In this document: positions 1-16,029 of the stretch, in pieces
Layout: every line of letters begins with the position of its first letter
Numbering within the stretch: the stretch's first letter is position 1
Source of the DNA: a virus
Taxonomy: Duplodnaviria; Heunggongvirae; Uroviricota; Caudoviricetes
Length of the DNA stretch: 16,029 bases
Reading direction: 5' to 3' (one strand)
Virus record (IMG/VR): IMGVR_UViG_2684622579_000002
Made by a program: the position numbers and the translations under genes
The notes under the pieces: generated by a model
Told to the model about the DNA's origin: nothing
The model's database searches: none
The model's input: the letters and a program-made list of their open reading frames with translations, nothing else

Positions 1-555
1 ATGCTTATTGGCTATGTACGTGTATCAACAAATGACCAGAATACCGATCTACAACGTAATGCGCTGAACTGTGCAGGATGTGAGCTGATTTTTGAAGACA
101 AGATAAGCGGTACAAAGTCCGACAGACCAGGACTGAAAAAGCTGCTCAGGACATTATCGGCAGGTGACACGCTGGTGGTCTGGAAACTGGACCGACTGGG
201 GCGCAGTATGCGGCATCTTGTCGTGCTGGTGGAGGAGTTGCGCGAACGAGGCATCAACTTTCGTAGTCTGACGGATTCAATTGATACCAGTACCCCAATG
301 GGGCGCTTTTTCTTTCATGTGATGGGTGCCTTGGCTGAAATGGAGCGTGAACTGATTGTTGAACGAACAAAAGCTGGACTGGAAGCAGCTCGCGCACAGG
401 GACGAATTGGTGGACGTCGCCCCAAACTTACACCAGAACAATGGGGGCAGGCCGGACGATTAATTGCATCAGGCGTTCCTCGCCAGAAGGTGGCGATCAT
501 CTATGATGTTGGTATATCGACACTGTATAAGAAGTTTCCGGTCGGAGATAAATGA
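1..555 (+). CDS. pin: Serine recombinase, DNA invertase of the Pin/Hin/Gin family (complete, 184 aa)
   Basis: N-terminus MLIGYVRVSTNDQ with the catalytic Ser context typical of resolvase/invertase enzymes; conserved RLGR and GRFFFHVMGALAEMERELI motifs; C-terminal HTH-like region (IASGVPRQKVAIIYDVGISTLYK). ATG at 1, TGA at 553-555. Confidence 0.85.
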   Translation: MLIGYVRVSTNDQNTDLQRNALNCAGCELIFEDKISGTKSDRPGLKKLLRTLSAGDTLVVWKLDRLGRSMRHLVVLVEELRERGINFRSLTDSIDTSTPMGRFFFHVMGALAEMERELIVERTKAGLEAARAQGRIGGRRPKLTPEQWGQAGRLIASGVPRQKVAIIYDVGISTLYKKFPVGDK

Positions 556-596
556 AACCGTAGCACGTCGTATGCAAGAAGATCGTGCTGCGGTTT
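555..596. repeat. Hairpin repeat copy A (about 13 bp stem with one G-T wobble, 16-nt loop tcgtatgcaagaagat) between convergent pin and GIY-YIG genes
   Basis: Positions 558-580 (ccgtagcacgtcgtatgcaagaa) match 1582-1605 (ccgtagccacgtcgtatgcaagaa) except for one inserted base. Stem arms 555-567 and 584-596 are complementary. Confidence 0.6.
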
Positions 597-615
597 ATGC
601 TTATCACTTAAAGAC

Positions 616-1485
<870 letters not shown>

Positions 1486-1580
1486 CTAAGCCTTTGAATT
1501 TACATAGTACAAAAAAGATACTTTTCCTCATAATGTGAATTAATTTTATGTTTCGTTTGATGATTGGACCGGTCTCGAAA

Positions 1581-1614
1581 CCCGTAGCCACGTCGTATGC
1601 AAGAACGTGCTACG
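1581..1614. repeat. Hairpin repeat copy B (9 bp stem with one bulge, 13-nt loop tcgtatgcaagaa) upstream of the GIY-YIG gene
   Basis: Direct-orientation near-identical copy of the element at 555-596; stem arms 1584-1592 and 1606-1613. Confidence 0.6.
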
Positions 1615-1885
1615 ACTGGCTGGTGAACTTCCGATAGTGCGAGTATTGAATGATTTCCAACTGTTATCGATTTTGCGTATTTTTTGCATGAGAGGATTTT
1701 TACCTCCTCCCGCCGATCCTCCATGGCTTTACGCCTGTGTCTCTGGTCTGCTATGTGCCAATAGCGGACATTGCTAACATTATCTAATACACAACAAAAA
1801 ATGTCAGTCTATATGATATCATCTACTGTCTTTTAAATTCCCCACCTGTCTCAGTTATTAGTGTTAGATAAGGAATCAAAAAATT

Positions 1886-2560
1886 ATGAGAGCATATAAA
1901 TTTAGGTCGGCTTCTCAAATAGCATTTACCCTAGATATAATTTTTAATCGTAGGCTTTTTTGCTCTGACTGGAAAATGTTGAATGACCCAATGGAAGGGA
2001 TGTTTGTTTTCTCTCATCAAACATCTGATGGTTACGACTATAAAAAAGAAATTCAGCAGATAATAGAAGAAAAGAAACGGCTTAAGGTTTGTTCTCTTTC
2101 AGCTACATATGAGTCTCATTTACTTTGGGCTCACTATGCTGGGGGGTTTGATGGTTGCGCTATCGAAATTGAAATCCCAGACAATCATCACAGTATTAAA
2201 CAAATTGAATATAGAGGTGTATTTGCAAATTTAGCAATGCCCAATATTTATAGTCCTGATGAACTTGCTAACCAAGTTTTATCCTCTAAATATCGAGAAT
2301 GGGAATACGAACAGGAAGTTAGGATTTTGCAAACGAATGAGTGGTTTTACTTAGATAAACCAGTTCGACGAGTAATAGCAGGGCATAGAATGCCTTCGGC
2401 ATTATTTGAAGCCATGAATATAATATGCAACTCGATGGGGATTGAATTTTGCCGTACTGGAATTGGTGATGAGGGGATTGATGCCGATTATGTTGAGCCC
2501 TCAAAAATTCTAACGCCGAATAATCATCTTGACTGGGATGTACTAAAAAATGACCGATGA
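1886..2560 (+). CDS. Hypothetical protein, DUF2971-like (224 aa)
   Basis: ORF with ATG at 1886, AGGA 11 nt upstream, AT-rich codon usage. LWAHYAGG and EWEYEQEVRIL motifs resemble what I recall of the DUF2971 family; this is unverified. Confidence 0.5.
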   Translation: MRAYKFRSASQIAFTLDIIFNRRLFCSDWKMLNDPMEGMFVFSHQTSDGYDYKKEIQQIIEEKKRLKVCSLSATYESHLLWAHYAGGFDGCAIEIEIPDNHHSIKQIEYRGVFANLAMPNIYSPDELANQVLSSKYREWEYEQEVRILQTNEWFYLDKPVRRVIAGHRMPSALFEAMNIICNSMGIEFCRTGIGDEGIDADYVEPSKILTPNNHLDWDVLKNDR

Positions 2561-2699
2561 ATTAGAGATTTATATGGTTAGCAGAGTGTAAGGCTCAAGA
2601 TTCCCACGCTCAATAACCAATTGATTGTGAATAACTTTCACCCACAATTGCTCGATATGAAACTATGAGCAATTGTGATGTAAATGTATGCAACAGGTT

Positions 2700-3326
2700 T
2701 TATATCTTATTCCCAAGTATTAACTGTGTTGAGCGAGCCATAATTCTAAATATAAATGGCATACCCTCTGTTAGCTCATCGAGTGTTGGCGTTCGCCTGC
2801 TTGCTTCCAAAAGTATTGAACGCAGAAACTCAACTTCTGGATCACATGCAATTTCTTCATCCAATGCCTTAAGTTTGCCTTTTATTTCTTTTATCTCTGA
2901 CAAACTATGGTTGAGGGTTTCACTTCCCTTTATTTCTGAAAGTATACGTCTTTCATGGTAATTAAGTTGCTCACGGAAAAACAATGCCATACTGGCTTTC
3001 TTTACTAAAAGCTCCATTTCCTTTCTTTTTTTCTCAAGATCTAAGATTTCTTCTTGAGTTGAGTTTTTATTCGTTTTTAGGGATTTTAACTCACTAATAG
3101 TCTTAGTTATGGACTCTAATGAAGTGGCCTCAAGCTGTTCTAAATCTGACTGTGTAATAGCAGGCTTCGACAATGAATAGATGCAAACAATAGTCATTAC
3201 AAAACCTACAATAGCCATCCCATTTAAATAAATTGGCAGTTCCAATTTATTTAAATACGCAAATAAACCACCTATAATGAAATAAGCCATACTTAACAAA
3301 ACCAGTACAGTACAAAACCGCCTCAT
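2700..3326 (-). CDS. Membrane-anchored coiled-coil protein (208 aa), function unknown
   Basis: Two N-terminal hydrophobic segments (VLVLLSMAYFIIGGLFAYL and GMAIVGFVMTIVCIYSL) followed by a charged heptad-like region (EEILDLEKKRKEMELLVKK). GAGG SD 6 nt upstream of the ATG at 3324-3326. Confidence 0.55.
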   Translation of the reverse strand: MRRFCTVLVLLSMAYFIIGGLFAYLNKLELPIYLNGMAIVGFVMTIVCIYSLSKPAITQSDLEQLEATSLESITKTISELKSLKTNKNSTQEEILDLEKKRKEMELLVKKASMALFFREQLNYHERRILSEIKGSETLNHSLSEIKEIKGKLKALDEEIACDPEVEFLRSILLEASRRTPTLDELTEGMPFIFRIMARSTQLILGNKI

Positions 3327-3754
3327 TCTAACCTCGTTAAATTTTTTTAGTTTATATGGTTAACCTACTAAAACCTTGTTCCCAGCATTTCGAGCAGGAA
3401 CTTTACGTTCCTCACTTGAGCAAGCTACTGCGGCAACACAATATCTTAACTTAATAAACTTAACTAGCAAGCTACTCATAACGTCCGCTCTTCGCTCATA
3501 ACAGACATAAACTTCAGTTATGGCATAAAGGTATGCATGCTGGGTGGGGAAAGTATGAAGGAAAAGAAGACTGCTGCGCCGTTTGTCGTCACGTTTATCT
3601 TCATTGGCTATGCAAGTCGTAATACAAGGTGGGACAAAACTGAGACACATAAGGCCTCGCAATGGCTTGCAAGGCTTTACATGTTTTGATGTAGTGGGAC
3701 GTGTGAGCGCAGTGTTGATGGGGTAATGCTTTGAATTAGAAGCGGATTCTTATA

Positions 3755-3964: not shown

Positions 3965-5155
3965 ATGATGCTGAATGCCCGCAAGGTTGAAGCTGCGAAA
4001 GGAAAAGAGAAGAGCTACAAGCTGTTTGATGGAGGTGGCCTATACCTTCAGGTCGAACCTAATGGCTCGCGTTACTGGCGTATGAAATACCGTTTTGCTG
4101 GTAAAGAGAAACGATTGTCCTTTGGTGTTTATCCAACAGTCACACTTGCTGATGCCAGACAAAAACGAGAAGACGCGAAGAAACTACTCGCAGCAGGTGA
4201 AGATCCCGGCGAAGTCAAAAAAGCCAAAAAGCAGGCTTTAAATGCAGCGATTGAGACACTTAACCCATTCAGAGAAGTGGCGTTAGAGTGGCACAAAATG
4301 AAATCACCCAAATGGTCTGAGGGCTATGCTTCCGACATCATTGAGGCATTCGAGAAAGACATTTTCCCGCATATTGGGCACAGACCTATAGCTGATATTC
4401 AGCCCCTTGAACTGCTTGAAGTTCTGAGGTTGATAGAAGCTCGAGGCGCTATGGAGAAAGCGAAGAAAGTCCGTCAGCGATGCGGTGAAGTTTTTCGCTA
4501 TGCCATCGTAACGGGTAGGGCAATCTACAATCCGGCACCGGATCTTGCCAGTGCGATGCAAGGACATGAAGCAGTCCACTATCCATTCCTCAAAGCCAAC
4601 GAACTACCGGAGTTCTTTAATGCCCTTAATTCTTATTCAGGAAGTCCAATTGTATTGTTGGGGGCGCATTTACTTATCCTGACAGGTCTACGAACTGGAG
4701 AACTACGAGCAGGTGAGTGGCGAGAGGTGGATTTTGATAATGCGGTGTGGGAGATCCCAAAAGAACGTATGAAAATGCGTAGGAGCCATATTGTCCCGTT
4801 GTCAAAACAAGCATTATCCCATCTCAAAAGTTTGAAAGAACTAACTGGGAACTACCCGCTGATGTTCCCTGGACGCAACGATCCTAGCAAATTTATGAGT
4901 GAAGCAAGCATTAATCAGGTGTTTAAACGTATTGGATATGCAGGGCGTGTTACGGGGCATGGTTTCAGGCATACGATGAGTACAATCCTACATGAGAAAG
5001 GATTTAACAGCGCTTGGATTGAAACCCAGCTTGCTCATTCGGACAAAAACTCTATTCGTGGAATTTATAACCATGCCCAATATCTCGAAGGGAGAAGAGA
5101 AATGATGCAATGGTATGCTAATTATTTATCTGAGCTAATTGGTACTCATAAATGA
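3965..5155 (+). CDS. int: Tyrosine recombinase, P4-type integrase (about 396 aa)
   Basis: N-terminal MLNARKVEAAKGKEKSYKLFDGGGLYLQV is the characteristic P4-integrase N-terminal arm; C-terminal catalytic region has HGFRHTMST and a downstream tyrosine context (IRGIYNHAQY). Immediately follows the tRNA 3' fragment. Start placed at ATG 3965/3968 rather than the TTG at 3896 given in the ORF track. Confidence 0.9.
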   Translation: MMLNARKVEAAKGKEKSYKLFDGGGLYLQVEPNGSRYWRMKYRFAGKEKRLSFGVYPTVTLADARQKREDAKKLLAAGEDPGEVKKAKKQALNAAIETLNPFREVALEWHKMKSPKWSEGYASDIIEAFEKDIFPHIGHRPIADIQPLELLEVLRLIEARGAMEKAKKVRQRCGEVFRYAIVTGRAIYNPAPDLASAMQGHEAVHYPFLKANELPEFFNALNSYSGSPIVLLGAHLLILTGLRTGELRAGEWREVDFDNAVWEIPKERMKMRRSHIVPLSKQALSHLKSLKELTGNYPLMFPGRNDPSKFMSEASINQVFKRIGYAGRVTGHGFRHTMSTILHEKGFNSAWIETQLAHSDKNSIRGIYNHAQYLEGRREMMQWYANYLSELIGTHK

Positions 5156-5976
5156 ATATTTTAAAAATTAATAATACTGATTCTCTGCTCAGAGATTACT
5201 ACCAGTTGGATGAAGCTTCAGAAAAAATTGGTTGTAGTGAAAAGGATATACTCTGGTTTGCCAGAGAACGAGATGTAGAGCTATGCATGGAATTCCATGA
5301 TGATGAGTATGATGTTTCATGTGGTTTGAAGATTGATGGTCAAATGGATGAGTTCTTATCTAATCTGAAATATTTACCACGAGATAGAAATGGCAATATT
5401 ATGTTGTCAGACTTAAGTTCTATAAGAATCCCTGATGAAGATAATTTAATTGATAAAAATGGTTTTATTCGATGTTTCATATCCGGTTTATGGGCTGTTG
5501 ATTATGAATATAAAGATCTGTTAGTTAAGCATGAGGGGCAACCGGATTCTTGGCCTATTCATTTTCTACTGGCGGGTACGCCTAATATAAATTGTAAGGT
5601 AATTCTTTATGTAAATTATGATGAAAAAGAAAATTATTATCTTTTTGAGGTTTTGTGGATTACAAAGGTACAGATTCAAAAATTCATTGATATAGTCTTA
5701 TGCGAACAAAAGCGGATAAAAAACGCCAATAAATATAAATCACAATCTGAGGCGCAAAAACAAAAACATGCTGTTCCTCGAGCTGAAATACTCATGGCTA
5801 TTATTTCGCTCTATCATCGTGATATGAGGCTAAGAAGAGAGAGTCCAGCAGCGATAGCTGATTATCTTTTTCAACATGCCAGTGAGTTCTGGCCTAAGAC
5901 CGGAGAACCGCCTTTGAGCTATGATACTGTTGTTAGTTTGCTACGTAGTTGCATGAAAAACATTAAGTTTAACTAA
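5152..5976 (+). CDS. Hypothetical protein (274 aa), AT-rich, translationally coupled to the integrase
   Basis: ATGA overlap with the integrase stop (ATG 5152, TGA 5153-5155); AT-rich codon usage unlike the GC-rich replication module; no motif I can assign. Confidence 0.6.
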   Translation: MNILKINNTDSLLRDYYQLDEASEKIGCSEKDILWFARERDVELCMEFHDDEYDVSCGLKIDGQMDEFLSNLKYLPRDRNGNIMLSDLSSIRIPDEDNLIDKNGFIRCFISGLWAVDYEYKDLLVKHEGQPDSWPIHFLLAGTPNINCKVILYVNYDEKENYYLFEVLWITKVQIQKFIDIVLCEQKRIKNANKYKSQSEAQKQKHAVPRAEILMAIISLYHRDMRLRRESPAAIADYLFQHASEFWPKTGEPPLSYDTVVSLLRSCMKNIKFN

Positions 5977-6424: not shown

Positions 6425-6598
6425 TTAGCCTTTAGGGTCAATCCCGCGTGATTGGAGTTCTTTGCGTAAAATTCTTTTAATCCAAGTTGCCAACGCGCTA
6501 TCTCCATCTTTGCGCATTTCGTTTTCGAGTTGCAACCTAAAATCGTCGGTAAGACGCATTTGGAATGGTGGAGAACGTTTCTCTTGTGGTGTTGACAT
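6425..6598 (-). CDS. Arc/MetJ-type ribbon-helix-helix DNA-binding protein (57 aa), absent from the supplied ORF track
   Basis: Hand-translated minus-strand ORF MSTPQEKRSPPFQMRLTDDFRLQLENEMRKDGDSALATWIKRILRKELQSRGIDPKG; the PPFQMRL segment resembles the Arc N-terminal beta-strand motif (PQFNLR). Start codon overlaps a palindromic operator. Confidence 0.6.
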   Translation of the reverse strand: MSTPQEKRSPPFQMRLTDDFRLQLENEMRKDGDSALATWIKRILRKELQSRGIDPKG

Positions 6599-6638
6599 GG
6601 TAATTACCCTAGAATATGATGACTACATGGTAATTACC
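6595..6638. promoter_or_regulatory. Two copies of the 14-bp repeat ACATGGTAATTACC, each containing the perfect palindrome GGTAATTACC, 30 bp apart: putative operators
   Basis: Palindromes at 6599-6608 and 6629-6638; the first overlaps the start codon of the Arc-like gene, the second lies in its promoter region, within the divergent intergenic region 6599-6729. Confidence 0.55.
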
Positions 6639-6666
6639 ATTGTAAGTATAGTTCGCTTGTAAAAGC

Positions 6667-6701
6667 AATGCCCGATTGTGCGGGAACACAAATCGGGCAT
6701 T
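6667..6701. promoter_or_regulatory. 14-bp-stem inverted repeat (AATGCCCGATTGTG / CACAAATCGGGCATT, loop cgggaa) in the leader of the replication operon
   Basis: Arms 6667-6680 and 6687-6701 are complementary with one bulge; located 29 nt upstream of ATG 6730; no U-tract follows. Confidence 0.45.
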
Positions 6702-6729
6702 TAACCAACCGTTATAAGAGGTAACGAAG

Positions 6730-6906
6730 ATGGCTAAACAGAAGTGTACCTGGTTATTTGCGGCGATCAACCGCAGTCAACGCAATGCCCGTCCTGTGAT
6801 GTTAAGGATCACCGCAGATAACGAGCGGTCAGCGCGGCGCAGACTTGCCCCGGACTATGTACTGAGCTTTGCCGGGCGCATTCCCTGCGGAGGTGAACAT
6901 GCGTAA
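6730..6906 (+). CDS. Small protein (58 aa), first gene of the replication operon; possibly Icd-like
   Basis: Hand-translated MAKQKCTWLFAAINRSQRNARPVMLRITADNERSARRRLAPDYVLSFAGRIPCGGEHA; AAGAGG SD 8 nt upstream; stop overlaps the next gene start (ATGCGTAA). Family assignment is from memory and weak. Confidence 0.5.
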   Translation: MAKQKCTWLFAAINRSQRNARPVMLRITADNERSARRRLAPDYVLSFAGRIPCGGEHA

Positions 6907-7258
6907 TTATCCGCACCCCGGCGAACGCTGGCAGCATGAACGTGGCTGGACGGTCACGATTATCCGATTAATAGAAGCCTCGCCCTCTGTGGCGCTGGTT
7001 AATCCTGAATTCAGCTGTGAAGTGCTGATACGTCATGACAGCGACAACCAGCTTTCTTCCTGCCCTCTGGCATGGTTTGAACAGCGGTATACGCGCCTGT
7101 TTGATGTACCGCTCTTTAAGCCTGCACCAGCTCCTGCAGGCGGTAGTGGTTCCGGCCCGCTGACACTGCATCCGTCTGTGCTATTTATCCGCTGGCGGGA
7201 GCGTAGCATATGGCGTTCTGCTGAGCCTGACGACGGTCACTATTCAAAGTTTCTCTGA
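6899..7258 (+). CDS. Hypothetical protein (120 aa)
   Basis: ATG at 6899 preceded by GGAGGT; GC-rich codon usage consistent with neighbours; the ORF track extended it to an upstream alternative start at 6869. Confidence 0.5.
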   Translation: MRNYPHPGERWQHERGWTVTIIRLIEASPSVALVNPEFSCEVLIRHDSDNQLSSCPLAWFEQRYTRLFDVPLFKPAPAPAGGSGSGPLTLHPSVLFIRWRERSIWRSAEPDDGHYSKFL

Positions 7259-7289
7259 CAAAATACCGCTGAAAACGGAGTAATCCACG

Positions 7290-7574
7290 ATGAATATTTC
7301 AAACGGGCACAACGGTGCTCAGGGCCACACTTTGCCTGAAAAACACAATACCGGTGCTTTTGCCTATGGGTTGTCAGAGGACAGTTTCGGAAAGCTGACC
7401 CGCGCAAGAAATGCCTGCGACATGCTCCAGCTTCTCTTTTCTGAATACCCGTCTCAGGCCGGAGCACTGGACGCTGGCTGTGCGCATGGTGTCGCCGCGC
7501 TGATGGAGTACCTGCTGGCAGATTTGACGGATATTGCACACAGTTGCGCACTGATTGAAGGAGGTGCCAGATGA
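7290..7574 (+). CDS. Hypothetical protein (94 aa)
   Basis: ATG 7290 with GGAG 8 nt upstream; stop overlaps the next start. Confidence 0.5.
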   Translation: MNISNGHNGAQGHTLPEKHNTGAFAYGLSEDSFGKLTRARNACDMLQLLFSEYPSQAGALDAGCAHGVAALMEYLLADLTDIAHSCALIEGGAR

Positions 7575-7954
7575 ACCAGCCGCAGGTTTCCATTTTCCCG
7601 GCAGAAATGACCACCGCGCTTTACCGGCGGGCTATTGCTTCAGCATGGCGGCAGAAAATGCTGAACGAAACTGGCAGTGATCAGTATGGTCCGCACAGCC
7701 TGACGGTGGAGCGTATTGAAATGGCCATTGCGCTGCATATCGAGTGCGTACTGATTAACGAGTACGGCGAAGTGCAGGGCGCCGCTACCGCGCTGGCACT
7801 GCTGACTGACATGCTGGAGCCGTCACTGCTGACCGCGCCGCCGGTACTGACCGCGCGCGGCTGTGAAGTGATGGCGGAGATGTACCGCACGCTTCCGGCG
7901 GCCTTTGATGACTTCTGCAGTACCGGTGTGACGTTGTATGAGGGGGAAGTATGA
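7571..7954 (+). CDS. Hypothetical protein (127 aa)
   Basis: ATG 7571 with GGAGGT SD; ATGA overlaps at both ends indicate translational coupling into the primase gene. Confidence 0.55.
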   Translation: MNQPQVSIFPAEMTTALYRRAIASAWRQKMLNETGSDQYGPHSLTVERIEMAIALHIECVLINEYGEVQGAATALALLTDMLEPSLLTAPPVLTARGCEVMAEMYRTLPAAFDDFCSTGVTLYEGEV

Positions 7955-10623
7955 CAATACGGACGGTTACGCAGATTTCAGCCGCCGCACGGGGGAAATG
8001 GCCCGTTATTCTGCAGATGCTGCGTATTGATGTACCTGAAAACGGCAGGCACGGTCCCTGCCCGAAATGTGGGGGCAAGGATCGTTTTCGCCTTGATGAC
8101 CTTGACGGGCGCGGGACGTGGATCTGCAGCCAGTGTGGCAATGGTGACGGTCTGGATCTGGTTAAGCTCGTAACCGGTTACAGCGTCAGAAAGGCTGCGC
8201 AGGAGGTGGCGCAGGTGCTTAATGTGCCGGATGTGCAGGAACTGCCTGTTAAGCCTGCCAGACAAAAAGCCCCTAAACGAGACATGGGTCTTACCGTGGC
8301 GGCGCTGATGAAAGAGAGCCACACGGGAGAAAGCGCCTATCTGACAGGAAAAGGGTTCGCCGGATACCCGGCCTCTCTGACCGGAAGCGTGCAGCATATC
8401 AGCGGTAAGGATTTTCCTGCCGGTTCCCTGCTGTTACCACTCACGACCAACACCGGAGCCGTGACCGGTGCACAGCTTATCGCCCCGACGGGTGAAAAAA
8501 GCATACTGCCCGGCAGCACGATGAAAGGCGCGTTTGTGTCGCTCAGCCCGTTACCGTCTGAACCACCGGTACAGGTGGTGATTACCGAAGGTTACGCTAC
8601 GGCGCTGACGGTAAGCCAGCTCACTGCCGGATGCGTAGTGGCTGCCATATCTGCGGGCAACCTGCCCAATGTGGCGCAGTCGCTGCGGGCACGCTGGCCT
8701 GAGGTAAAAATTATCATCGCCGGTGATAACGATTTTCAGGACGGGGGTGAGAATCCCGGCAGAGCCTTTGCTGAACGGGCGGCAAAAGCTGTTGGCGGCT
8801 GGATGACGCTGCCACCAGGAGAGATTAAGGCTGACTGGAATGACTTTCATCGGGAGCACGGTATTACCCGTGCCCGTGAAGCCTTTCGCAACGGTCTGGT
8901 ACTGTGCGGGGAAGGCCGCACGCAACTGCCGCACGGGTTCCGTCTTACCCAGGAATATCTCTGGTATGAAAAGCAGGTACAGCGCAACGGTGAGACGGAG
9001 ATCCAGAACGTCAAAATATGCAGCCCGCTGCGCGTGACGGCAATTACCTGCGATGCCGATGGCGGTAACTTCGGACGACTGCTGGAATGGGAAGATACGT
9101 GGGGTGAGTGTCGCCGCTGGGCGATGCCAATGGAAATGCTGAGCGGCAGTGGTGAGGAACTGCGCCGGGTACTGCTGGTTAACGGGCTGTCTTATATCAG
9201 CACCACCGGTGAGGCACGCGCACGCCTGATGGAATATATCTCACTGTGTAAACCGGAACGCCGCGTGACCTGCGTCAGTCGTACTGGCTGGCATGGTCAG
9301 GTTTACGTCCTGCAGGATGAGGTCAGCGGTGAAGGTGCAGAGGGTGTCATTCTCCAGACCACTTCCGTGCAGGGGCGTGATTTCCGCGTGTCGGGCACAA
9401 CAGAGGAATGGCGGGAGCATGTATCCCGCTACTGTACCGGCAACTCCCGCGTGGCATTTGCTGTCAGCCTGGCCTTTGCTGCACCACTGTTACGGCTGGT
9501 TGGTATGGACGGCGGCGGCTACCACCTCAAAGGGGAATCGACAGACGGTAAGACCACCACCATGAAAGCGGCAACCTCCGTCTGCGGCGGGCCTGACTAC
9601 TGGCAGACATGGCGGGCCACCGGCAACGCGCTGGAGGGATGCGCCAGCCGCCGTAACGATGCCGCCATGATGCTTGATGAGATCCGGGAAGTTGACGGAC
9701 GCGAGGCAGGCAATATCGCCTACATGCTGGCAAACGGTCAGGGCAAGGGCCGTGCCGGTACGGACGGTGAGCTGCGTACCCGTAAGCAGTGGCGCCTGTT
9801 GTTCTTTTCAACTGGCGAGTTGTCTCTGACCGAACATGCGGCAAAGGCCGGTGAGCGTACTTTTGCCGGGATGGAAGTCAGGATGATCCAGATCCCCAGC
9901 GATTCCGGGAAGTTTGGCGTTTTTGAGGAGCTGCACGGCTTCGACAGCGGCAAGGCTCTGGCAGAGCATCTTGAATGGGCCACGTCCTGCTACTACGGTT
10001 CGCCGTTCCGGGAGTGGCTGAAAGCACTGACCGCTGATCTTAACGGACTAACGGCACAGGCAAAATCGCTGATGAAGGAATATGCTGCCGCCCTGACTCC
10101 GAAAGATGCAGGCAATCAGGTGGGCCGGGCTGTGAACCGCTTTGCACTGGTGGCGATGGCAGGTGAACTGGCAACCCGTCTGGGTATCACCGGCTGGCCT
10201 GAGGGTGAAGCACTGCGGGCAACCCGCGTCTGCCTGAACGCATGGCTGAAAGATCGCGGGCACACCGCCAATCAGGAAGATATCGCCGCACTGGAGCAGG
10301 TTCGCAGTTTCTTTACCGCGAATCAGTACAGCCGCTTTGCAGACTGGTATGACGAGCGCAACCGCCCCGGCAATATGGTGGGCTGGCGCAGGGTGGAGAA
10401 AGGCAGTACCGCGCAGGGCACGGAAGCTGTCACTACGTTCTATGTCATGCCGTCCGGCTGGAAAGAAATCTGCAGGGGATTTGACCCGCGCAAGGTGGCG
10501 CGTCTGTGCGCAGATCGTGGATACCTGCTGCCCTCCACTGATGGCAAACTCCAGACAACCATTCGCCCGCCAGAGATGAATCCCCGCAGGCTCTATGTCT
10601 TCAACAGCGAGGTGCCGGGTTAA
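7951..10623 (+). CDS. P4-alpha-like primase-helicase (890 aa): zinc ribbon, TOPRIM and C-terminal P-loop NTPase domains
   Basis: N-terminal CPKCGG...CSQCG zinc-binding motif; TOPRIM-like VVITEGYATALTV and IIIAGDNDFQD; Walker A-like GESTDGKTT. GAGGGGGA SD upstream of ATG 7951. Confidence 0.9.
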   Translation: MTIRTVTQISAAARGKWPVILQMLRIDVPENGRHGPCPKCGGKDRFRLDDLDGRGTWICSQCGNGDGLDLVKLVTGYSVRKAAQEVAQVLNVPDVQELPVKPARQKAPKRDMGLTVAALMKESHTGESAYLTGKGFAGYPASLTGSVQHISGKDFPAGSLLLPLTTNTGAVTGAQLIAPTGEKSILPGSTMKGAFVSLSPLPSEPPVQVVITEGYATALTVSQLTAGCVVAAISAGNLPNVAQSLRARWPEVKIIIAGDNDFQDGGENPGRAFAERAAKAVGGWMTLPPGEIKADWNDFHREHGITRAREAFRNGLVLCGEGRTQLPHGFRLTQEYLWYEKQVQRNGETEIQNVKICSPLRVTAITCDADGGNFGRLLEWEDTWGECRRWAMPMEMLSGSGEELRRVLLVNGLSYISTTGEARARLMEYISLCKPERRVTCVSRTGWHGQVYVLQDEVSGEGAEGVILQTTSVQGRDFRVSGTTEEWREHVSRYCTGNSRVAFAVSLAFAAPLLRLVGMDGGGYHLKGESTDGKTTTMKAATSVCGGPDYWQTWRATGNALEGCASRRNDAAMMLDEIREVDGREAGNIAYMLANGQGKGRAGTDGELRTRKQWRLLFFSTGELSLTEHAAKAGERTFAGMEVRMIQIPSDSGKFGVFEELHGFDSGKALAEHLEWATSCYYGSPFREWLKALTADLNGLTAQAKSLMKEYAAALTPKDAGNQVGRAVNRFALVAMAGELATRLGITGWPEGEALRATRVCLNAWLKDRGHTANQEDIAALEQVRSFFTANQYSRFADWYDERNRPGNMVGWRRVEKGSTAQGTEAVTTFYVMPSGWKEICRGFDPRKVARLCADRGYLLPSTDGKLQTTIRPPEMNPRRLYVFNSEVPG

Positions 10624-11023: not shown

Positions 11024-11767
11024 ATGAACAACACCGCAGTGAATAACAACCTTTCCACTTTTCCGGCTGTAACGCAGCGGGCACTGGAAACCATGAACAC
11101 AGCCAGAAACGCATGGCTTGAAGCACGTCGTCAGCAGAAAGCGGCAGCGGATAATATTGCGACAATCCGCCAGCGTCGCGCTGAAATGGAAGCCACGACG
11201 AACACACTGAATGAGGAGTGGCGCACGCTGTTTCGTGAAAGTCAGGGCGTGGTCTCAAAGGAAATGAAAAAACTGCGCACGGAAATTGCGCTGGGACGAG
11301 AAACTCTTGAGGATTTTGATGAGCTGCTGGAGGCTCAGGAAAGCGAAAATGCACTTTTGCCGCAGAAAGCTGCGGAATTAGCCGGAAAGTATATCCACGC
11401 GCATAACATCCTTGTGGATATTCGCGCAAAACAAATCTGGGAAGATTTTATGCAGTCGCATGGAAAAGCGCTTATTCAGACGCTGAGCCTGCTTAAATCC
11501 ACAATGGGCCGGGAAGCCAGTGCCGTTGTGGGTGTGGTGAATTCAGTTAATGACCCGGACACAGTGCTGAAAGACTTTATTCATAAACATATCACCAGAC
11601 CGGCTCTGGCTAACGATGCGATGCCTGAGCAGGACCCGGTGTTTAAACTGGCGGGAGTTGCCCCGGATTATGCGGCGCGTCTGGATTTCAGTAATCAACT
11701 CTCTCCGGCAGCTATGCATAAAATTAAGGTTCGTCAGGAACTTGCTGAGAAGGAGAAAGCAGTATGA
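11024..11767 (+). CDS. Sid/Psu-family protein (247 aa); by size and position probably a Sid-like capsid size-determination scaffold
   Basis: GGAG SD 5 nt upstream; shares NAWLEARRQQKAAAD and DFMQSHGKAL motifs with the downstream Psu-like protein; ATGA coupling to the next gene. Confidence 0.6.
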   Translation: MNNTAVNNNLSTFPAVTQRALETMNTARNAWLEARRQQKAAADNIATIRQRRAEMEATTNTLNEEWRTLFRESQGVVSKEMKKLRTEIALGRETLEDFDELLEAQESENALLPQKAAELAGKYIHAHNILVDIRAKQIWEDFMQSHGKALIQTLSLLKSTMGREASAVVGVVNSVNDPDTVLKDFIHKHITRPALANDAMPEQDPVFKLAGVAPDYAARLDFSNQLSPAAMHKIKVRQELAEKEKAV

Positions 11768-12315
11768 CGGCCCGAGGCACGCCTGACCAGGCACTTACCA
11801 GTTTTCGGAATGCCCGTATTCTGTGGGCCGGACATAATGAGAGCCGAAAAGCCGTTGAACAACAGATAACATCTCTCCTCGCTGCCACAGAAAAACCAGC
11901 AGATTATGCCCGACAGCTCGAATTACTGCGGGAACGTCTGGATGTGCTGAAATGGCAAATTAACTGTGCTGCGCGCGAATGCATTTACTCGCAGCATTTA
12001 CTGATGGAGGCCTGCACAGAAGCCGCTCTCAGCAATTTTATGCAGGCGAATGGGGCAGCCCTGACATCTGCACTGGCTCCGTTCCTGAAGGGGCGCGGAG
12101 GGGTTGACGTTGCGTCCCGTATATTACGCAGTGCTCTGGTTCGCCAGCTGGCAATAACACCGCCTGAAATTGCCGGGGATTATCGTGAGATCCTGGATGA
12201 ATCCGGTTTGATGCCTGACCCCGGGATGATTCGTGATTGCCAGGGTTCTTACACCCCGGCACAACATCTGCGTTTTCAGCAACGCCTGAATGACATTAAC
12301 GATATACAGGAGTGA
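11764..12315 (+). CDS. psu: Psu-like polarity suppression / capsid decoration protein (183 aa)
   Basis: LKWQINCAARECIYSQH and FMQANGAALTSALAPFLKG match my recollection of P4 Psu (VRKWQVNQAAGRYI and FMQQHGTALAAALAP); similar length to P4 Psu. Confidence 0.65.
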   Translation: MTARGTPDQALTSFRNARILWAGHNESRKAVEQQITSLLAATEKPADYARQLELLRERLDVLKWQINCAARECIYSQHLLMEACTEAALSNFMQANGAALTSALAPFLKGRGGVDVASRILRSALVRQLAITPPEIAGDYREILDESGLMPDPGMIRDCQGSYTPAQHLRFQQRLNDINDIQE

Positions 12316-12320
12316 TATTA

Positions 12321-12593
12321 ATGGCACTTAAATGTCCGGAATGCGGTACAGTTGCACACGCCAGAACAGCAGCCTATGAAGCTCCGTCAGTTAAACGCTC
12401 GTGGTATCAGTGCCAGAATCTGGAATGTTCCTGCACATTTACGGCACTGGAGAGTGTGGATAAGATAATCATGAAACCCCGGCGCAATGAACAGCTATCA
12501 GACAAAGCACAATCCCCGGAAAAACAACAGCAAACGCTCAATCGCTATGGCTCCGCGTCAAAACTGTCAAGCCGTCAGCAGATTCCTGTCTGA
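12321..12593 (+). CDS. ogr: Ogr/Delta-family zinc-finger late transcription activator (90 aa)
   Basis: CPECG...HART...YQCQNLECSCTF matches the Cys4 pattern of P2 Ogr (CPLCQ...HART...HQCQNVNCSATF); AGGAG SD 8 nt upstream of ATG 12321. The ORF track started it at the GTG at 12312. Confidence 0.8.
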   Translation: MALKCPECGTVAHARTAAYEAPSVKRSWYQCQNLECSCTFTALESVDKIIMKPRRNEQLSDKAQSPEKQQQTLNRYGSASKLSSRQQIPV

Positions 12594-13122: not shown

Positions 13123-14082
13123 ATGCTAACCAGGGCTGAAAATATAAGAAAAATCACAAGCTATTTAGCTATTCTCTCAAGAGAGGTTGAGATTAGTGCC
13201 TCCCTCAATCTTTTGGATATCAACGTTCAAGCGGAATCTTTTTATAGAGATTTCTTAAACTTATGTTATGGATATAATTTAAGAAATACCAATAGTGAAG
13301 AGCAAAACTACCAAGCAATAGATCTTGCTGATGAAGATCGGAAGATTGCTATACAAGTAACTTCAACTTCTGACTTGGGAAAAATTAAGAATACAGTTGA
13401 TGGATTTATAAAAAGTAAGCAATATGAAAAATATGATAGACTAATTGTACTGAATATAACTGAAAAGAAAAAGCACAGATTGAAAGAGTATGGAATAGCC
13501 GGGTGCTATGTAATTAATATCAAAGATGATGTATGGGATTATAAGGATATAATTAGAAAGATAAACGATTTGAATGATTGTGATATATCAACAATATGCT
13601 CATTTTTGGAACGTAATATTAATACTAAAGCTGCTGATAAACCGCCGAAAGAAGTCACAACTATGTTTGCGATGATTGAATTATTGAGTGATGATGCTCA
13701 CCCATTGGCAGGAAATGGATTTATTGAAGAGCCTAATCCTGAAAATAAAATATATAAAAGATTTTCAGATTATTCAGAGCGGTTGATTGGCTTATATACT
13801 GGGTTAGCTCCATTATATAGTGGGATATTTAAGTCAATAAAAGAACAGAGCGATATTGGTATCGTAAGGTACCAAAAGATGAGTTTGTATTTAGAGTCAT
13901 TTAGTGATAAGGTCTTAAGAAGCCATGGTGGAGATCCTATCTTGGCGCTTAATTATTTAAAAGAATATTTTTCTAAACAACTGAGCCAGAGAAATGTAGA
14001 TTACGATGAAACAGCTATCAAATTTTTCTTAATTGAGAATTTAATTGCATGTAACGTCTTTCCTAATTCGGAGATTCTTTGA
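13123..14082 (+). CDS. Hypothetical protein (319 aa), putative effector of a three-gene system; N-terminal region possibly SMEK-like
   Basis: AGGGA SD 6 nt upstream; AT-rich codon usage. N-terminal LNLLDINVQAESFYRDFLNLCYGYNL...IAIQVTSTSD resembles what I recall of SMEK-domain proteins of ABC-three-component systems; unverified. TGATG overlap with the next gene. Confidence 0.65.
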   Translation: MLTRAENIRKITSYLAILSREVEISASLNLLDINVQAESFYRDFLNLCYGYNLRNTNSEEQNYQAIDLADEDRKIAIQVTSTSDLGKIKNTVDGFIKSKQYEKYDRLIVLNITEKKKHRLKEYGIAGCYVINIKDDVWDYKDIIRKINDLNDCDISTICSFLERNINTKAADKPPKEVTTMFAMIELLSDDAHPLAGNGFIEEPNPENKIYKRFSDYSERLIGLYTGLAPLYSGIFKSIKEQSDIGIVRYQKMSLYLESFSDKVLRSHGGDPILALNYLKEYFSKQLSQRNVDYDETAIKFFLIENLIACNVFPNSEIL

Positions 14083-14330
14083 TGTTAAGTTTTTTTTCGA
14101 AAGATGAGGATTTGACAAAATCCCCTCCTGTTGTAGGGGCTAAAATTCTTAATTTATTTGACGAAACAAAAAAAGAAAAAATTAGTATTTTCGATTTAGC
14201 AAAAGAATTAAAGAAAAACAACTCTCTAGGAGTGCGTGCAATTTATTTTGGAATGGTCTTTCTTTATACTCTTGATCTTATCGATTTCGATGAGCCATAT
14301 GTGATAAATAAAAATGTTAAGAATAAATAA
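14082..14330 (+). CDS. Small protein (82 aa), putative middle/adaptor component
   Basis: ATG 14082 overlaps the upstream TGA (14080-14082); its 3' end overlaps the ATPase start by 17 nt; AT-rich. Confidence 0.55.
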   Translation: MLSFFSKDEDLTKSPPVVGAKILNLFDETKKEKISIFDLAKELKKNNSLGVRAIYFGMVFLYTLDLIDFDEPYVINKNVKNK

Positions 14331-16029
14331 ACTATATAGCATACCAGAATCTTTTGAGCCAGTAAGCTTTGATAGTGGCATCAATATCATCTTAGGTGAA
14401 AAAGATGTTTCATCTAACAAAACTAATGGAGTGGGTAAAACTCTTTTAATAGAGTTTATTAATTTTTGTTTATTAAAAGAATTTAAGTCGAGTAGAGTTT
14501 CTAAAATTCCTCATTCTGATTTTTCGAAAGACATTTTGATATGCCTTGATTTTAATATTGATAATATTAACATTATATCCCAGCGTTCTATTGGGAAACA
14601 TAATGAGCCAACACTTGTAATAAATGGAAAAACAATAGAGTTTAGTGGATTAGATGATGCGTTATCTCATTTAAGCAATCTTATCTTTAAGAATAGTAAG
14701 GGTATACTTCATCCATCATTTAGAGCGATGCTGGGGCCTCTGATACGCGATGAACGATCTGAATTTAAATCTATTGTTGAGTGCTTCGACACAAAATTAC
14801 ATATACCTGCTGACTATACTCCTCATCTTTATTTGTTAGGTATTGATATTGCTCCCTATAAAGAGGCAAAGATTTTACAACGAGAAATAGATGATTTATC
14901 AACTACAAAAAATAAAATAAAGAGAGATATTGAATTTCTGACGGGAAAAAAAATTAGTTCTGCAAAGGCAGAGGTTAATGATCTTAAATCAAAAGTTGAA
15001 CATATCAGAAACGCTATGGATGCATTTGATAGCGATAGCAGTTATGAACTTATCAAAGATGAAGTAGAAGAATTAGAAAGTTCTTTAGAAGAGTTGCGGA
15101 ATAAAAGAACAATACTTAAGTTAGAGCTTTCAAGAATAAATGCTCTCGTTGGTGAAGTATACATAAATGATGATGAAGTAGTTGAAATTTATAATAAATT
15201 TAAAGTTGGATTAGGTGATGCTATCAAAAAAGAACTTAATGATGTTATTTCATTTAAGAAAAAAATAGATCACTTCCAAAACACTTTGTTAAATACGCGA
15301 AAAGAAACATTACTTTCTGAATTGCGTAAGATATCAGATAAGCTATATACAGTAAATAGACTTTATAAAGAAAAAGCTAGTGTTTTTGAGCAGGCGGGGG
15401 GGTTTAAAAGCCTGAAAATTTTAATAATGACTTATCAGAAAAAGTTAGAGGAGTATTCACAGTTATCTTCATTGCTTAAAAAATTTGAAGATTTCGATTC
15501 TAAATGGAAAGTTAAGAAGTCAGAACGCTCTTCTATGATAATTTCGTTAGATCTTTCTATTATGGATAACGAAAAAACGATTGAATCTTTTGAGGAAACC
15601 ATTTTATCAATCCATGAATATGTTTTTGGAAATAGAAAGTGTTCTTTCGAAATTAAGGCGACAGAGAAGAAAGAAACTATCTCAATGGATTTAAGAATTG
15701 ATGATGACGGTAGTCATAGTAATGAGCGAGAAAAGGTTTTCTTTTATGATTTGGCTCTTTTACTTACAGAAGAAACGTTTCGACGTCACCCTGGATTATT
15801 AATTCATGATAATATTTTTGATGTGGATCAAGATACATTAATTAAAAGCTTGAATTATTTGGCAGAGAAATCCAGTTGCTTAAATGATGCACAATATATT
15901 TTGACGTTAAATAGCGACAAAATTAGTGAAATTGATAAAAGAGATTTGAAACTAGATATTAACTTCTATAAGCGAGCTTCGTTAACTAAAATAAATAGAT
16001 TCCTGGGAAGGCATTATCAAGAAATATAA
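14314..16029 (+). CDS. ABC/SMC-type coiled-coil ATPase (571 aa; the ORF ends exactly at the window edge)
   Basis: N-terminal P-loop region NIILGEKDVSSNKTNGVGKTLLIEF; long charged helical middle (EAKILQREIDDLSTTKNKIKRDIEFL...); C-terminal Walker B-like GLLIHDNIFDVD. TAA at 16027-16029. Confidence 0.8.
   Translation: MLRINKLYSIPESFEPVSFDSGINIILGEKDVSSNKTNGVGKTLLIEFINFCLLKEFKSSRVSKIPHSDFSKDILICLDFNIDNINIISQRSIGKHNEPTLVINGKTIEFSGLDDALSHLSNLIFKNSKGILHPSFRAMLGPLIRDERSEFKSIVECFDTKLHIPADYTPHLYLLGIDIAPYKEAKILQREIDDLSTTKNKIKRDIEFLTGKKISSAKAEVNDLKSKVEHIRNAMDAFDSDSSYELIKDEVEELESSLEELRNKRTILKLELSRINALVGEVYINDDEVVEIYNKFKVGLGDAIKKELNDVISFKKKIDHFQNTLLNTRKETLLSELRKISDKLYTVNRLYKEKASVFEQAGGFKSLKILIMTYQKKLEEYSQLSSLLKKFEDFDSKWKVKKSERSSMIISLDLSIMDNEKTIESFEETILSIHEYVFGNRKCSFEIKATEKKETISMDLRIDDDGSHSNEREKVFFYDLALLLTEETFRRHPGLLIHDNIFDVDQDTLIKSLNYLAEKSSCLNDAQYILTLNSDKISEIDKRDLKLDINFYKRASLTKINRFLGRHYQEI

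Follow-up and report, generated by a model that had tools for sequence, protein, structure and literature searches.

A diverged P4-type early operon with a candidate protein repressor and antisense RNA in a probable phage satellite of E. coli

The DNA analysed here, referred to below as the window, is a stretch of 16,029 nucleotides from a virus of the class Caudoviricetes (IMG/VR record IMGVR_UViG_2684622579_000002). It probably contains a phage satellite of the P4 family that has integrated into the chromosome of E. coli, and the four small genes upstream of its primase, together with the primase itself, probably make up a diverged and reordered form of the P4 early ('left') operon, kil-epsilon-orf151-cnr-alpha. 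Gene for gene, ORF1 is likely to correspond to Kil, ORF2 to be a remote relative of orf151, ORF3 to occupy the epsilon slot and ORF4 to correspond to Cnr. What is new lies in the control of the operon, where a small protein repressor and a probable antisense RNA have probably taken the place of the P4 immunity RNA.

About one enterobacterial genome in three has a P4-like satellite; these elements carry defence systems, yet annotation leaves their small early genes as hypothetical. A first-pass annotation of the window had likened the positions of the four genes to those at which P4 encodes kil, eta and epsilon-type functions, and had offered all four products as candidates for helper derepression or host takeover. 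The likeness in position is real for Kil and for the epsilon slot but breaks down at eta, which is absent, and the functional proposal fails for ORF4, as described below.

Layout of the element and its early operon

The element comprises an integrase, an AlpA-type regulator and the early operon, followed by sid/psu/delta-like genes and defence cargo. Both the integrase and the sid/psu/delta-like genes are annotated in an identical E. coli locus in RefSeq, which carries the same four small CDS, and profile searches recovered Psu-like and delta-like matches among the proteins of the element. The operon genes lie on the plus strand. ORF1 (6730..6906; 58 aa) is the first to be translated and is followed by ORF2 (6899..7258; 119 aa), ORF3 (7290..7574; 94 aa), ORF4 (7571..7954; 127 aa) and, as the last gene, a primase-helicase of 890 aa (7951..10623) with Pfam matches to a zinc ribbon, Toprim and DUF927. 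These sizes are the ones first assigned, except that ORF2 had been given as 120 aa.

The start of ORF2 overlaps the stop codon of kil by 8 nt (ATGCGTAA at 6899-6906), and ATGA overlaps join ORF3 to ORF4 (7571-7574) and ORF4 to the primase (7951-7954), each exactly where the first-pass annotation had placed it. That annotation had read the overlaps as a sign that all four genes are co-translated with the primase. ORF2 and ORF3 are separated by a gap of 31 nt and do not overlap, and because of this gap the genes form two potentially coupled groups, ORF1-ORF2 and ORF3-ORF4-primase, instead of one four-gene chain. Every start is preceded by its own Shine-Dalgarno sequence, as read from the sequence, and the overlaps would allow translational coupling without proving it. 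A site resembling a terminator, on the minus strand of this gap (7266-7278), was rejected as being no more than chance expectation.

Conservation of the four small genes

All four small genes are under purifying selection. Compared with relatives, dN/dS was 0-0.17 for ORF1, 0.12-0.35 for ORF2, 0.20-0.41 for ORF3 and 0.10-0.28 for ORF4, far under 1 in each case; the corresponding values for the primase were 0.03-0.06. Conservation among related elements had been named beforehand as a test of the first-pass proposal, and the arrangement is indeed kept in 33 related loci. The junction spacing of -8, +28 to +31, -4 and -4 or +9 holds in almost all of them, and in about 30 of the 33, across several enterobacterial genera, neither gene lengths nor junctions are disturbed. 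The four-gene block occurs in 333 of 5426 complete E. coli genomes. The same architecture is found in two distant loci, L075 and L078 (the latter without the DUF5375 gene), whose ORF2-family members share no more than 32-40% identity with ORF2. Frameshifted copies held in databases (for example P0030, P0065 and P0095) could be taken to favour a reading of the small ORFs as chance open frames or functionless decayed remnants. Against this stand the low dN/dS of each of the four genes, the intact lengths and junctions across genera and an architecture that persists at 32-40% identity. These conservation data refute the reading, which retains a negligible probability.

Kil, a probable Cnr and the primase

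The four genes had been described as lacking recognisable motifs, which is incorrect for the first and the last of them. ORF1 matches the NCBIfam model NF033153 (phage_ICD_like) over residues 6-52 with 84 bits (cut-off 25; E 5.5e-24), and pairwise alignment with the Kil part of P4 ORF137, for which the experimentally defined C-terminal 65 aa served as reference, gave 54% identity over 46 aa (E 6e-15). A tblastn search of the phage collection with ORF1 also recovers P4. By these similarities ORF1 is a true homologue of the cell-division killer Kil of P4, and the same activity is predicted for it; overexpression of Kil kills the host of P4. No eta was found, a stop codon at 6715-6717 closing the kil frame upstream. 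ORF1 has no match to any Pfam family, including the Ash domain PF10554, which P4 ORF137 does match.

ORF4, directly upstream of the primase, matches Pfam PF17345 (DUF5375) with 50.5 bits (gathering score 30; E 2.2e-13) and is 40% identical to P4 ORF106 over 96 aa (E 4e-17). Among the P4 genes epsilon, orf151 and orf106, which lie between eta and alpha, orf106 is the only one with homologues in P4-type loci other than P4. A cnr-containing family occurs in 90% of elements and a 75-aa family in 61% (PMC8628076); the latter was also recovered here in P4-type loci. Since ORF106 alone is conserved between eta and alpha, as fits the widespread cnr-containing family, we infer that it is cnr, the regulator of replication copy number. 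ORF4 is probably a Cnr-type copy-number regulator with this activity predicted from its relatives, and not the candidate helper-exploitation factor that had been proposed.

The primase resembles P4 alpha over residues 5-316 (38% identity, E 1e-48), whereas the remainder differs, and the alpha helicase family PF03288 is absent from its Pfam matches. As judged from these alignments, only the N-terminal primase domain of P4 is retained, and the operon is joined to another helicase domain than that of P4. Cnr reportedly acts on alpha, and the Cnr-insensitive alpha mutants of P4 map to its C-terminal DNA-binding region. This region is not conserved in the primase studied here, and the target of Cnr in this element is consequently uncertain.

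ORF2 and the epsilon slot

In ORF2 a Pro/Gly/Ser linker connects a small beta-barrel at the N-terminus to a conserved C-terminal tail, whose last residues are DDxHYSxFL. Compared directly by position with P4, neither ORF2 and epsilon nor ORF3 and orf151 showed similarity in pairwise alignment; a relationship emerged only with the partners exchanged, ORF2 being compared with orf151 and ORF3 with epsilon. The ORF2 family aligned with orf151 in hhalign at E 2.7e-4 and a probability of 41% in a very small search space, and in HMMER the real orf151 ranked third of 5001 when set against shuffles. The family member P0023 aligned with P4 orf151 over its full length at 28% identity (BLASTP E 1.6e-5; phmmer 1.3e-4), E-values between 1e-4 and 1e-5 in this comparison again deriving from very small search spaces. 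Common to the ORF2 family and orf151 are an N-terminal motif xPQxGE(R/I)Y and a C-terminal acidic stretch ending Y-x-x-(F/Y)-L. The two proteins fall in different PHROGs, orf151 in phrog_10748. Consistent with these similarities, ORF2 is probably a remote homologue of P4 orf151. Weak matches of 8 of 16 ORF2-family members to DUF4222 (best E 0.003, under threshold) give a hint of the fold only, and a search of PDB sequences with the ORF2-family profile returned nothing useful. With tblastn, neither ORF2 nor ORF3 had a match at E up to 1 among 50,697 deposited phage genomes.

ORF3 sits in the epsilon slot: it lies between kil and the primase, beside an orf151-type gene, and has a length of about 95 aa. 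The slot is identified as such because the distant loci L076 and L077 have at the same place, behind their Icd-like and ORF2-like genes, an evident member of the epsilon family PF25738 'Derepression' (E 1.7e-26). ORF3 itself has no Pfam match, to PF25738 at E up to 10 or to any other family. Three of 15 relatives gave sub-threshold matches to PF25738 (best E 0.016, 15.4 bits, gathering score 27), which is the sole Pfam family to match more than one member of the ORF3 family. In hhalign the family aligned with epsilon at E 0.0045-0.0055 with a probability of only 7-8%; the core comprised 17-20 columns around (F/Y)xKLxRA, and the two were colinear over 78 columns at 22% identity. The AF2 model of ORF3 (pLDDT 70) shows a disordered N-terminus and a helical hairpin formed by helices 30-52 and 62-91, a fold too simple for searching, and Foldseek against viral structures found no match under E 0.3. 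From its slot and these alignments, ORF3 is a probable candidate for an epsilon-type helper derepressor, and ORF3 or ORF2 may derepress the helper.

The similarity between ORF3 and epsilon is not significant, the ORF2 and ORF3 families are small, confined to Enterobacterales and everywhere unannotated, and the slot tolerates unrelated content, given that a single 75-aa gene stands in for epsilon and orf151 in all other P4-type loci examined. The 75-aa family showed no similarity to ORF3 or to epsilon. These observations would suit accessory genes specific to the clade and without kinship to orf151 or epsilon, acting as accessory replication factors for the DUF927 primase or as inhibitors of a host function; the element would then come by an induced helper in another way, for example by waiting until the helper is induced. 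We nevertheless regard such an origin as unlikely, in view of the end-to-end alignment of orf151 with P0023, the N- and C-terminal motifs common to both, the unique position of PF25738 among Pfam families and the Icd-like, ORF2-like and epsilon-family trio of L076 and L077.

Promoter, candidate operators and candidate repressor

A promoter scan placed the early-operon promoter at 6592..6620 on the plus strand (TTGACA, 17 nt, TATGAT), with 11 of 12 consensus positions matched. By repeat search, two copies of ACATGGTAATTACC, the candidate operators O1 (6595-6608) and O2 (6625-6638), bracket the -10 element, and the palindrome GGTAATTACC lies within each copy. At both of these places related loci have repeat pairs of their own, each pair going with a different repressor, and in every one of the six leader types a TTGAC-type -35 and a -10 fall between the operator repeats. 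The repressor candidate is a divergent 57-aa protein of ribbon-helix-helix (RHH, Arc-like) type encoded on the minus strand at 6425..6598, with a weak match to an Arc-like PHROG (phrog_228, E 0.003). Each operator type in the related loci has its own small RHH-like ORF at this place, with a conserved pattern of beta-strand and helix, and the sequence type of the repressor switches together with the operator repeats, giving at least six exchangeable specificities. From this pattern the RHH candidate appears to be the immunity protein of the element.

P4 relies on CI (C4) and seqA (isrK) RNA, neither of which was found here: Rfam models for C4 (RF01695), isrK (RF01394) and c4-a1b1 (RF03163) had no match in the window at E up to 1, and no C4 or isrK RNA was detected in three other loci of the clade at E up to 0.1. 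In P4 and two P4-type loci, by the same scan, C4 scored 75-84 bits and isrK 61-75 bits. Lacking both eta and the CI/seqA RNA, the control region is not P4-like.

A predicted structured RNA on the minus strand over the kil start

Antisense to the leader, Shine-Dalgarno sequence and start codon of kil, the minus strand encodes a putative structured RNA (6659..6735) that is supported by covariation, by its fold and by a weak Rfam match to symR. An outer helix pairs 6731-6735 with 6703-6707; stem-loop 1 (6710-6726) presents the anti-Shine-Dalgarno sequence in its loop, and stem-loop 2 (6667-6701) is accompanied by a U run (6661-6664). Compensatory changes affect 10 of the 13 hairpin pairs. Across the alignment 87.8% of cells are paired and 15 pairs change on both sides, which none of 500 shuffles reached. 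The minus-strand fold is the stabler one in 18 of 18 distinct sequences (mean difference -6.1 kcal/mol), most minus-strand folds having 2-4 G-U pairs (range 0-4) as against 0-1 on the plus strand. A covariance model returned one match per locus in the 33 clade loci, always on the minus strand, and none in the 26 P4-type loci that were searched. The reading of the hairpin as an attenuator or terminator on the plus strand was rejected, since no plus-strand U run follows the hairpin and the plus fold is the weaker in every one of the 18 sequences. The symR model (RF01809) matches 6735-6664 on the minus strand with 31.6 bits (E 0.012), and membership of the SymR family was rejected at this score, the gathering score being 61.

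The structure would belong either to a cis-antisense RNA some 75 nt long or to the repressor mRNA, as its 5' leader. A candidate promoter for the minus-strand RNA was read from the sequence at 6743..6770 (minus strand; TTGATC, 16 nt, TACACT), inside kil codons 5-14, and its predicted start lies near 6735. It is weak, with 8 of 12 consensus positions matched, and is not among the sites reported by the promoter scan. Divergent loci keep the TTG that begins the -35 hexamer and a TAnACT -10, while the overlapping codon varies between Cys, Phe and Ser, as would fit a promoter at this place.

Two other accounts of this RNA were weighed against that of a cis-antisense regulator of the operon. As an mRNA leader, it would be transcribed from a promoter facing that of the operon, in a convergent-transcription switch like those of coliphages 186 and P2; it is followed immediately, on its own strand, by the repressor gene, no good separate promoter for it was found by eye or by promoter scan, and in two leader types the U run after the hairpin is missing, so that read-through is likely there. 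In the window this run is short (4 U). Most leader types, in contrast, have a U-rich tract right behind a strong hairpin, which is the anatomy of an intrinsic terminator, and the extent of the RNA fits the 77-nt symR model; we consider the leader account possible though somewhat doubtful. In the other account, Kil and the RNA would be mainly a type I toxin-antitoxin (addiction) module that stabilises the island, and not a checkpoint of the life cycle. The combination of a small toxic protein and an antisense RNA lying in cis across the start of its translation recalls SymE/SymR, which the weak symR match echoes, and the RNA structure is conserved. Yet kil is the first cistron of a replication operon, with an 8-nt overlap to ORF2 in almost all loci, and the RNA hairpin is exchanged along with the repressor/operator module, which ties it to immunity. 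In P1 and P4, moreover, an Icd-like cistron governs the downstream genes, as described for P4 (PMC10111431). An addiction module as the main role therefore seems improbable to us.

Discussion

Together these data allow us to propose how the operon may be controlled, with the minus-strand RNA taken as a cis-antisense regulator. In the integrated state the divergent RHH repressor would occupy both operators around the promoter. On transcripts that leak through, the minus-strand RNA, being complementary to the ribosome-binding site and start codon of kil, would stop kil translation, and by analogy with P1 and P4 this block would prevent expression of the downstream genes and the primase. In P1 (c4/icd) and P4 (CI/kil), Rho can terminate transcription when the Icd-like leader gene goes untranslated; translational repression of P1 c4/icd/ant reportedly involves such Rho termination, and translation of P4 kil is said to prevent termination (PMC10111431). 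Upon induction kil would be translated, followed by ORF2 through the 8-nt overlap, and the ATGA overlaps would link the amounts of ORF3, Cnr and primase. Kil would then delay division, ORF3, perhaps with ORF2, would act on the repressor of the helper prophage, and Cnr would limit primase-driven replication.

The operon shares with the P4 left operon its strand logic and gene content: a Kil homologue as the first translated gene, an orf151-like gene with an epsilon-sized helical protein, and a Cnr homologue directly before a primase with an alpha N-terminal domain. In P4, overlaps of 8 nt occur at kil/epsilon and at epsilon/orf151 (P4 coordinates), and here ORF2 has an 8-nt overlap with the kil stop. 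Relative to P4, epsilon and orf151 have changed places, the orf151-like gene preceding the gene in the epsilon slot; P4 has the eta/Ash extension of kil, which is missing here; the helicase part is DUF927 and not of the alpha type; and the operon is co-directional with sid/psu/delta, from which it diverges in P4. Unlike in P4, immunity here apparently involves a protein (the RHH repressor with its operators) and a putative cis-antisense RNA.

The immI region of P1 (c4, icd, ant) likewise has an Icd-family cell-division inhibitor as its first cistron, overlapping the next gene, and its proposed control is by an RNA complementary to the Icd-type ribosome-binding region; the Icd likeness of ORF1 rests on the NCBIfam Icd-like model. 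In P1 the RNA is encoded upstream on the sense strand and reaches its repeated target sites in trans, whereas that of this element would be truly cis-antisense, and the downstream gene of P1 is Ant, which the downstream genes here are not. With SymE/SymR the element has in common a short RNA of two stem-loops, here predicted, that runs from the first codons of a small toxic gene over its Shine-Dalgarno sequence and start, and the weak Rfam match has the same extent and strand. It differs in its score (31.6 against 61), in that ORF1 is unrelated to SymE and in its target, here the leader cistron in an operon of five genes.

By profile content, the element resembles the Type C#01 P4-like satellites (Moura de Sousa and Rocha; PMC8628076, PMC10085698), which are P4-family elements with integrase, AlpA, sid/psu/delta and a defence hotspot that lack the epsilon/Ash and alpha profiles. 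It too would miss the survey profiles PF10554 (Ash), because ORF1 has no Pfam match, and PF03288 (alpha helicase), because the Pfam matches of the primase do not include it. Where those surveys left the small genes unresolved, they are assigned here to Kil, an orf151-like protein, the epsilon slot and Cnr, and the control region is described as well.

Going a step further, we suggest tentatively that this widespread clade has exchanged the RNA immunity of P4 and P1 for an undescribed, approximately 75-nt cis-antisense RNA that masks the kil ribosome-binding site and for an exchangeable RHH cassette of at least six specificities, the terminator hairpin travelling along with it. Joined to this suggestion, and equally tentative, is that ORF3 is a new and highly diverged branch of the epsilon family that is always paired with an orf151-type protein.

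For annotators, the four genes acquire usable names, Kil, orf151, epsilon slot and Cnr, and DUF5375 is indicated as the family of the Cnr copy-number regulator. ORF3 becomes a concrete candidate for the awakening of helpers by satellites in which no epsilon is recognisable. Immunity in this clade is suggested to be modular and protein-based with an antisense RNA layer, which bears on superinfection exclusion and on helper specificity. The findings also bear on how Icd-like leader genes have repeatedly come to serve as checkpoints of translation: if the proposed exchange of immunity systems is true, translation of an Icd-like gene would act as a conserved checkpoint, reached by convergence from three different RNA mechanisms.

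A conserved four-gene block ahead of the primase

Four small plus-strand genes, ORF1 (6730-6906, 58 aa), ORF2 (6899-7258, 119 aa), ORF3 (7290-7574, 94 aa) and ORF4 (7571-7954, 127 aa), are followed by a primase on the same strand (7951-10623, 890 aa). The first-pass annotation had described these ORFs, and all are present at the lengths it gave except ORF2, which it made 120 aa. The junction overlaps that it reported, ATGCGTAA at 6899-6906 and ATGA at 7571-7574 and 7951-7954, are exact. Its reading of them as co-translation with the primase stands only in part: as every start codon of the block is preceded by its own Shine-Dalgarno sequence, translational coupling is possible but unproven, and ORF2 and ORF3 do not overlap, lying 31 nt apart. 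This spacer (7259-7289) is 28-31 nt long in almost all loci, and holds a small hairpin with a terminator-like score on the minus strand that is within chance expectation.

Conservation among related elements had been set as a check on these ORFs. Related loci were gathered from IMG/VR (21), from a one-genome-per-species set (51) and by exact protein look-up (4). The same block occurs in 33 loci from Escherichia/Shigella, Enterobacter, Citrobacter, Pseudocitrobacter and Pantoea, almost all of which keep the junctions (-8, +28 to +31, -4, and -4 or +9). The same 1.4 kb is found at ≥80% identity in 333 of 5426 complete E. coli genomes, and RefSeq annotates the same four CDS in the E. coli copy. 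Across the 33 loci, identity is 53-100% for ORF2, 47-100% for ORF3 and 69-100% for ORF4, and at least 90% in all full-length copies of the primase. Pairwise dN/dS against the window was 0-0.17 for ORF1, 0.12-0.35 for ORF2, 0.20-0.41 for ORF3, 0.10-0.28 for ORF4 and 0.03-0.06 for the primase. These low values show that ORF1-ORF4 are coding genes under purifying selection, evolving several times faster than the primase.

ORF1 and ORF4 resemble Kil and Cnr of P4

The four genes had been said to carry no recognisable motifs, which is wrong for two of them: ORF1 scores 84 bits against the NCBIfam family 'host cell division inhibitor Icd-like' (cut-off 25), and ORF4 matches Pfam DUF5375 above threshold. 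ORF1 is 54% identical to residues 86-131 of P4 ORF137, the part from which Kil is translated, and we identify it as the predicted Kil. Kil is summarised in PMC10111431 as a truncated Eta with a role in cell killing. In P4 the kil frame is open upstream as eta, whereas here it is closed by a TAA at 6715-6717, which precedes the Shine-Dalgarno region by three codons. Given the closed frame, and that no Ash (PF10554) domain was found in ORF1, eta is absent from the block.

ORF4 is 40% identical to P4 ORF106. In P4, three genes lie between eta and alpha, namely epsilon, orf151 and orf106, of which only orf106 has homologues in other P4-type loci. Among these loci epsilon and orf151 are confined to actual P4 copies, and elsewhere both are replaced by one conserved gene of 75-77 aa, phrog_10110, located between kil and cnr in the other P4-alpha-type elements examined (L036-L074; for example L045 4777-5004). 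Moura de Sousa and Rocha (PMC8628076) describe two frequent families in this interval, one of 75 aa and absent from P4. That family is the phrog_10110 gene, a possible derepressor of the elements that carry it. From the conservation of orf106 alone, together with the two frequent families, we infer that ORF106/DUF5375 is cnr, and ORF4 appears to be Cnr-like. The positional guess from P4 was good, but of the four genes proposed as helper-exploitation candidates one would control replication instead. P4 replication is reportedly restrained by Cnr acting on alpha, in agreement with ORF106 being cnr. The similarity of the primase to P4 alpha is limited to its first ~316 residues (38% identity), the remainder being a DUF927 module. 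In a distant relative (L078, 3607-3879) there is no Cnr/DUF5375 gene and an ORF3-like gene directly overlaps the primase start; Cnr is therefore dispensable in some members.

ORF2 and ORF3 in relation to orf151 and epsilon

ORF2 had no family match in Pfam or NCBIfam, and its relatives in the databases are all 'hypothetical'; a profile run exhaustively over 1.84 billion representatives returned only 27 proteins. The family has a conserved N-terminal domain of ~68 residues starting xPQxGERYQH, a variable linker rich in Pro, Gly and Ser, and a conserved C-terminal tail ending DDxHYSxFL. P4 orf151 starts MFDFPQPGEIYR and ends DNSYRNYL. An hhalign comparison of the two aligned 62 N-terminal columns (E 2.7e-4, probability 41%), with the real orf151 sequence ranking 3/5001 against shuffles, and the ORF2-family protein P0023 aligned with orf151 end-to-end at 28% identity (BLASTP E 1.6e-5, phmmer 1.3e-4). 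ORF2 is probably homologous to P4 orf151.

ORF3 likewise matched no family, and in its AF2 model a helical hairpin (pLDDT 80-90 in the helices) follows a disordered N-terminus. Its similarity to epsilon (PF25738) is weak, both by hhalign (E ~0.005 around a common (F/Y)xKLxRA motif) and in Pfam, where PF25738 is the sole family matched by more than one ORF3-family member (3/15, best E 0.016). No similarity to the 75-aa family of P4-type loci was detectable. Synteny is more telling. Two related loci, L076 and L077, carry an operon of an Icd-like gene (NF033153, E 1.8e-9), an ORF2-like gene, a clear PF25738 member (E 1.7e-26) and a primase; orf151-type and epsilon-type genes are adjacent there and in P4, as they would be in the window if ORF3 is epsilon-like. 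We give even odds to ORF3 being a relative or functional analogue of epsilon.

The control region differs from that of P4

In P4 and P4-type loci Rfam places C4 (CI RNA) and isrK/c4-a1b1 (seqA) upstream of kil, whereas it found none of these RNAs in the window or in three other loci of its clade, which has instead a promoter-repeat-RHH (ribbon-helix-helix) cassette and a hairpin. Sequence scanning placed a near-consensus plus-strand promoter at 6592-6620, flanked by two copies of ACATGGTAATTACC, its -35 overlapping the start codon of an Arc-like ORF of 57 aa that is oriented divergently. Across related loci the control region exists in at least six versions, each with its own repeat pair at the same two positions and its own small ribbon-helix-helix-like ORF, a pattern that reads as the signature of exchangeable repressor/operator specificities. 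Each of these cassettes (window 6590-6701, and the equivalent region in L004, L008, L015, L020 and L032) has its own candidate RHH repressor, a pair of operator repeats and a hairpin that resembles a terminator. The recombination boundary lies immediately upstream of a YTRACCA motif that is conserved.

Between the operators and kil lies a conserved minus-strand hairpin (6667-6701), which varies in sequence by type but keeps its pairing, with compensatory changes in 10 of 13 pairs. The minus strand folds better in 18/18 distinct sequences (mean difference -6.1 kcal/mol), having 2-4 G-U pairs in most (range 0-4) at places that are C-A mismatches on the plus strand, and in most types a U-rich run follows the hairpin on the minus strand. 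A second minus-strand stem-loop (6710-6726) exposes an anti-Shine-Dalgarno sequence in its loop, and the start-codon complement and a conserved ACCA motif together form an outer helix. Pairing extends to 87.8% of cells overall, and 15 pairs are changed on both sides, which 0/500 shuffles reach. A covariance model of the structure matched once in each of 33 loci of the clade, in every case antisense to kil, but in none of the 26 P4-type loci searched; the sole Rfam match, a weak one, was SymR on the same strand and over the same extent. Codons 5-14 of kil hold a possible minus-strand promoter (TTGATC, 16 nt, TACACT), its TAnACT core constant while the overlapping codon varies. At the level of structure, these comparisons give good support to an RNA from the minus strand that is complementary to where kil translation begins; this RNA may be a small RNA in its own right or may form the leader of the repressor mRNA.

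The block lies in a P4-family satellite

The identical E. coli locus adjoins tRNA-Thr and proA, and runs integrase, AlpA-type regulator, block, two Psu/Sid-like genes, an Ogr/Delta-like zinc-finger gene and cargo. The window has the same gene set, and the element is a P4-family satellite. Its Sid-like (247 aa), Psu-like (183 aa) and Delta/Ogr-like (93 aa) genes (11024-12593) overlap one another and run in the direction of the primase operon, whereas in P4 itself (L002), used for comparison, they are divergent from the replication operon and ordered sid-delta-psu. Downstream (13123-16029) are genes for a SMEK_N-domain protein, a small MC6-like protein and a DUF2326/AAA protein, cargo that looks like an ABC-3C-type predicted conflict system in a P4-like defence hotspot. 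A family-less 274-aa gene (5152-5976) shares an ATGA overlap with the integrase stop, and carries an IS1A insertion in strain VG12A2 (L001 7015-8377). Left of the integrase (1-3700) are a serine resolvase (1-555), a GIY-YIG LEM-3-like nuclease (616-1440, minus strand) and three family-less ORFs. No tRNA gene was found anywhere in the window, whereas in NZ_CP128592 the identical operon has tRNA-Thr as its direct neighbour. The window may derive from another site or from a composite island.

Among related elements, the cargo of one (L008 9281-9488) has retron msr-like and STnc400-like RNA matches and another (L031 1124-1214) adjoins tRNA-Sec. Near-P4 contigs (98-100% protein identity) in MAGs labelled Dysgonomonas, Clostridiales, Ferruginibacter and 'bacterium' (L039, L041-L043) are most likely binning or contamination artefacts.

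These data allow us to propose a model in which repressor and antisense RNA would hold kil untranslated and, by analogy with P1 c4/icd and P4 CI/kil, the operon would then terminate before the primase. Upon induction Kil would be made, then ORF2 through coupling, with ORF3, Cnr and primase produced as a coupled trio. Judged from its sequence, the block is best described as a diverged, reordered P4 left operon: what is known is that operon, and what differs here is the gene order, together with the other helicase module and the other immunity system to which the block is joined.
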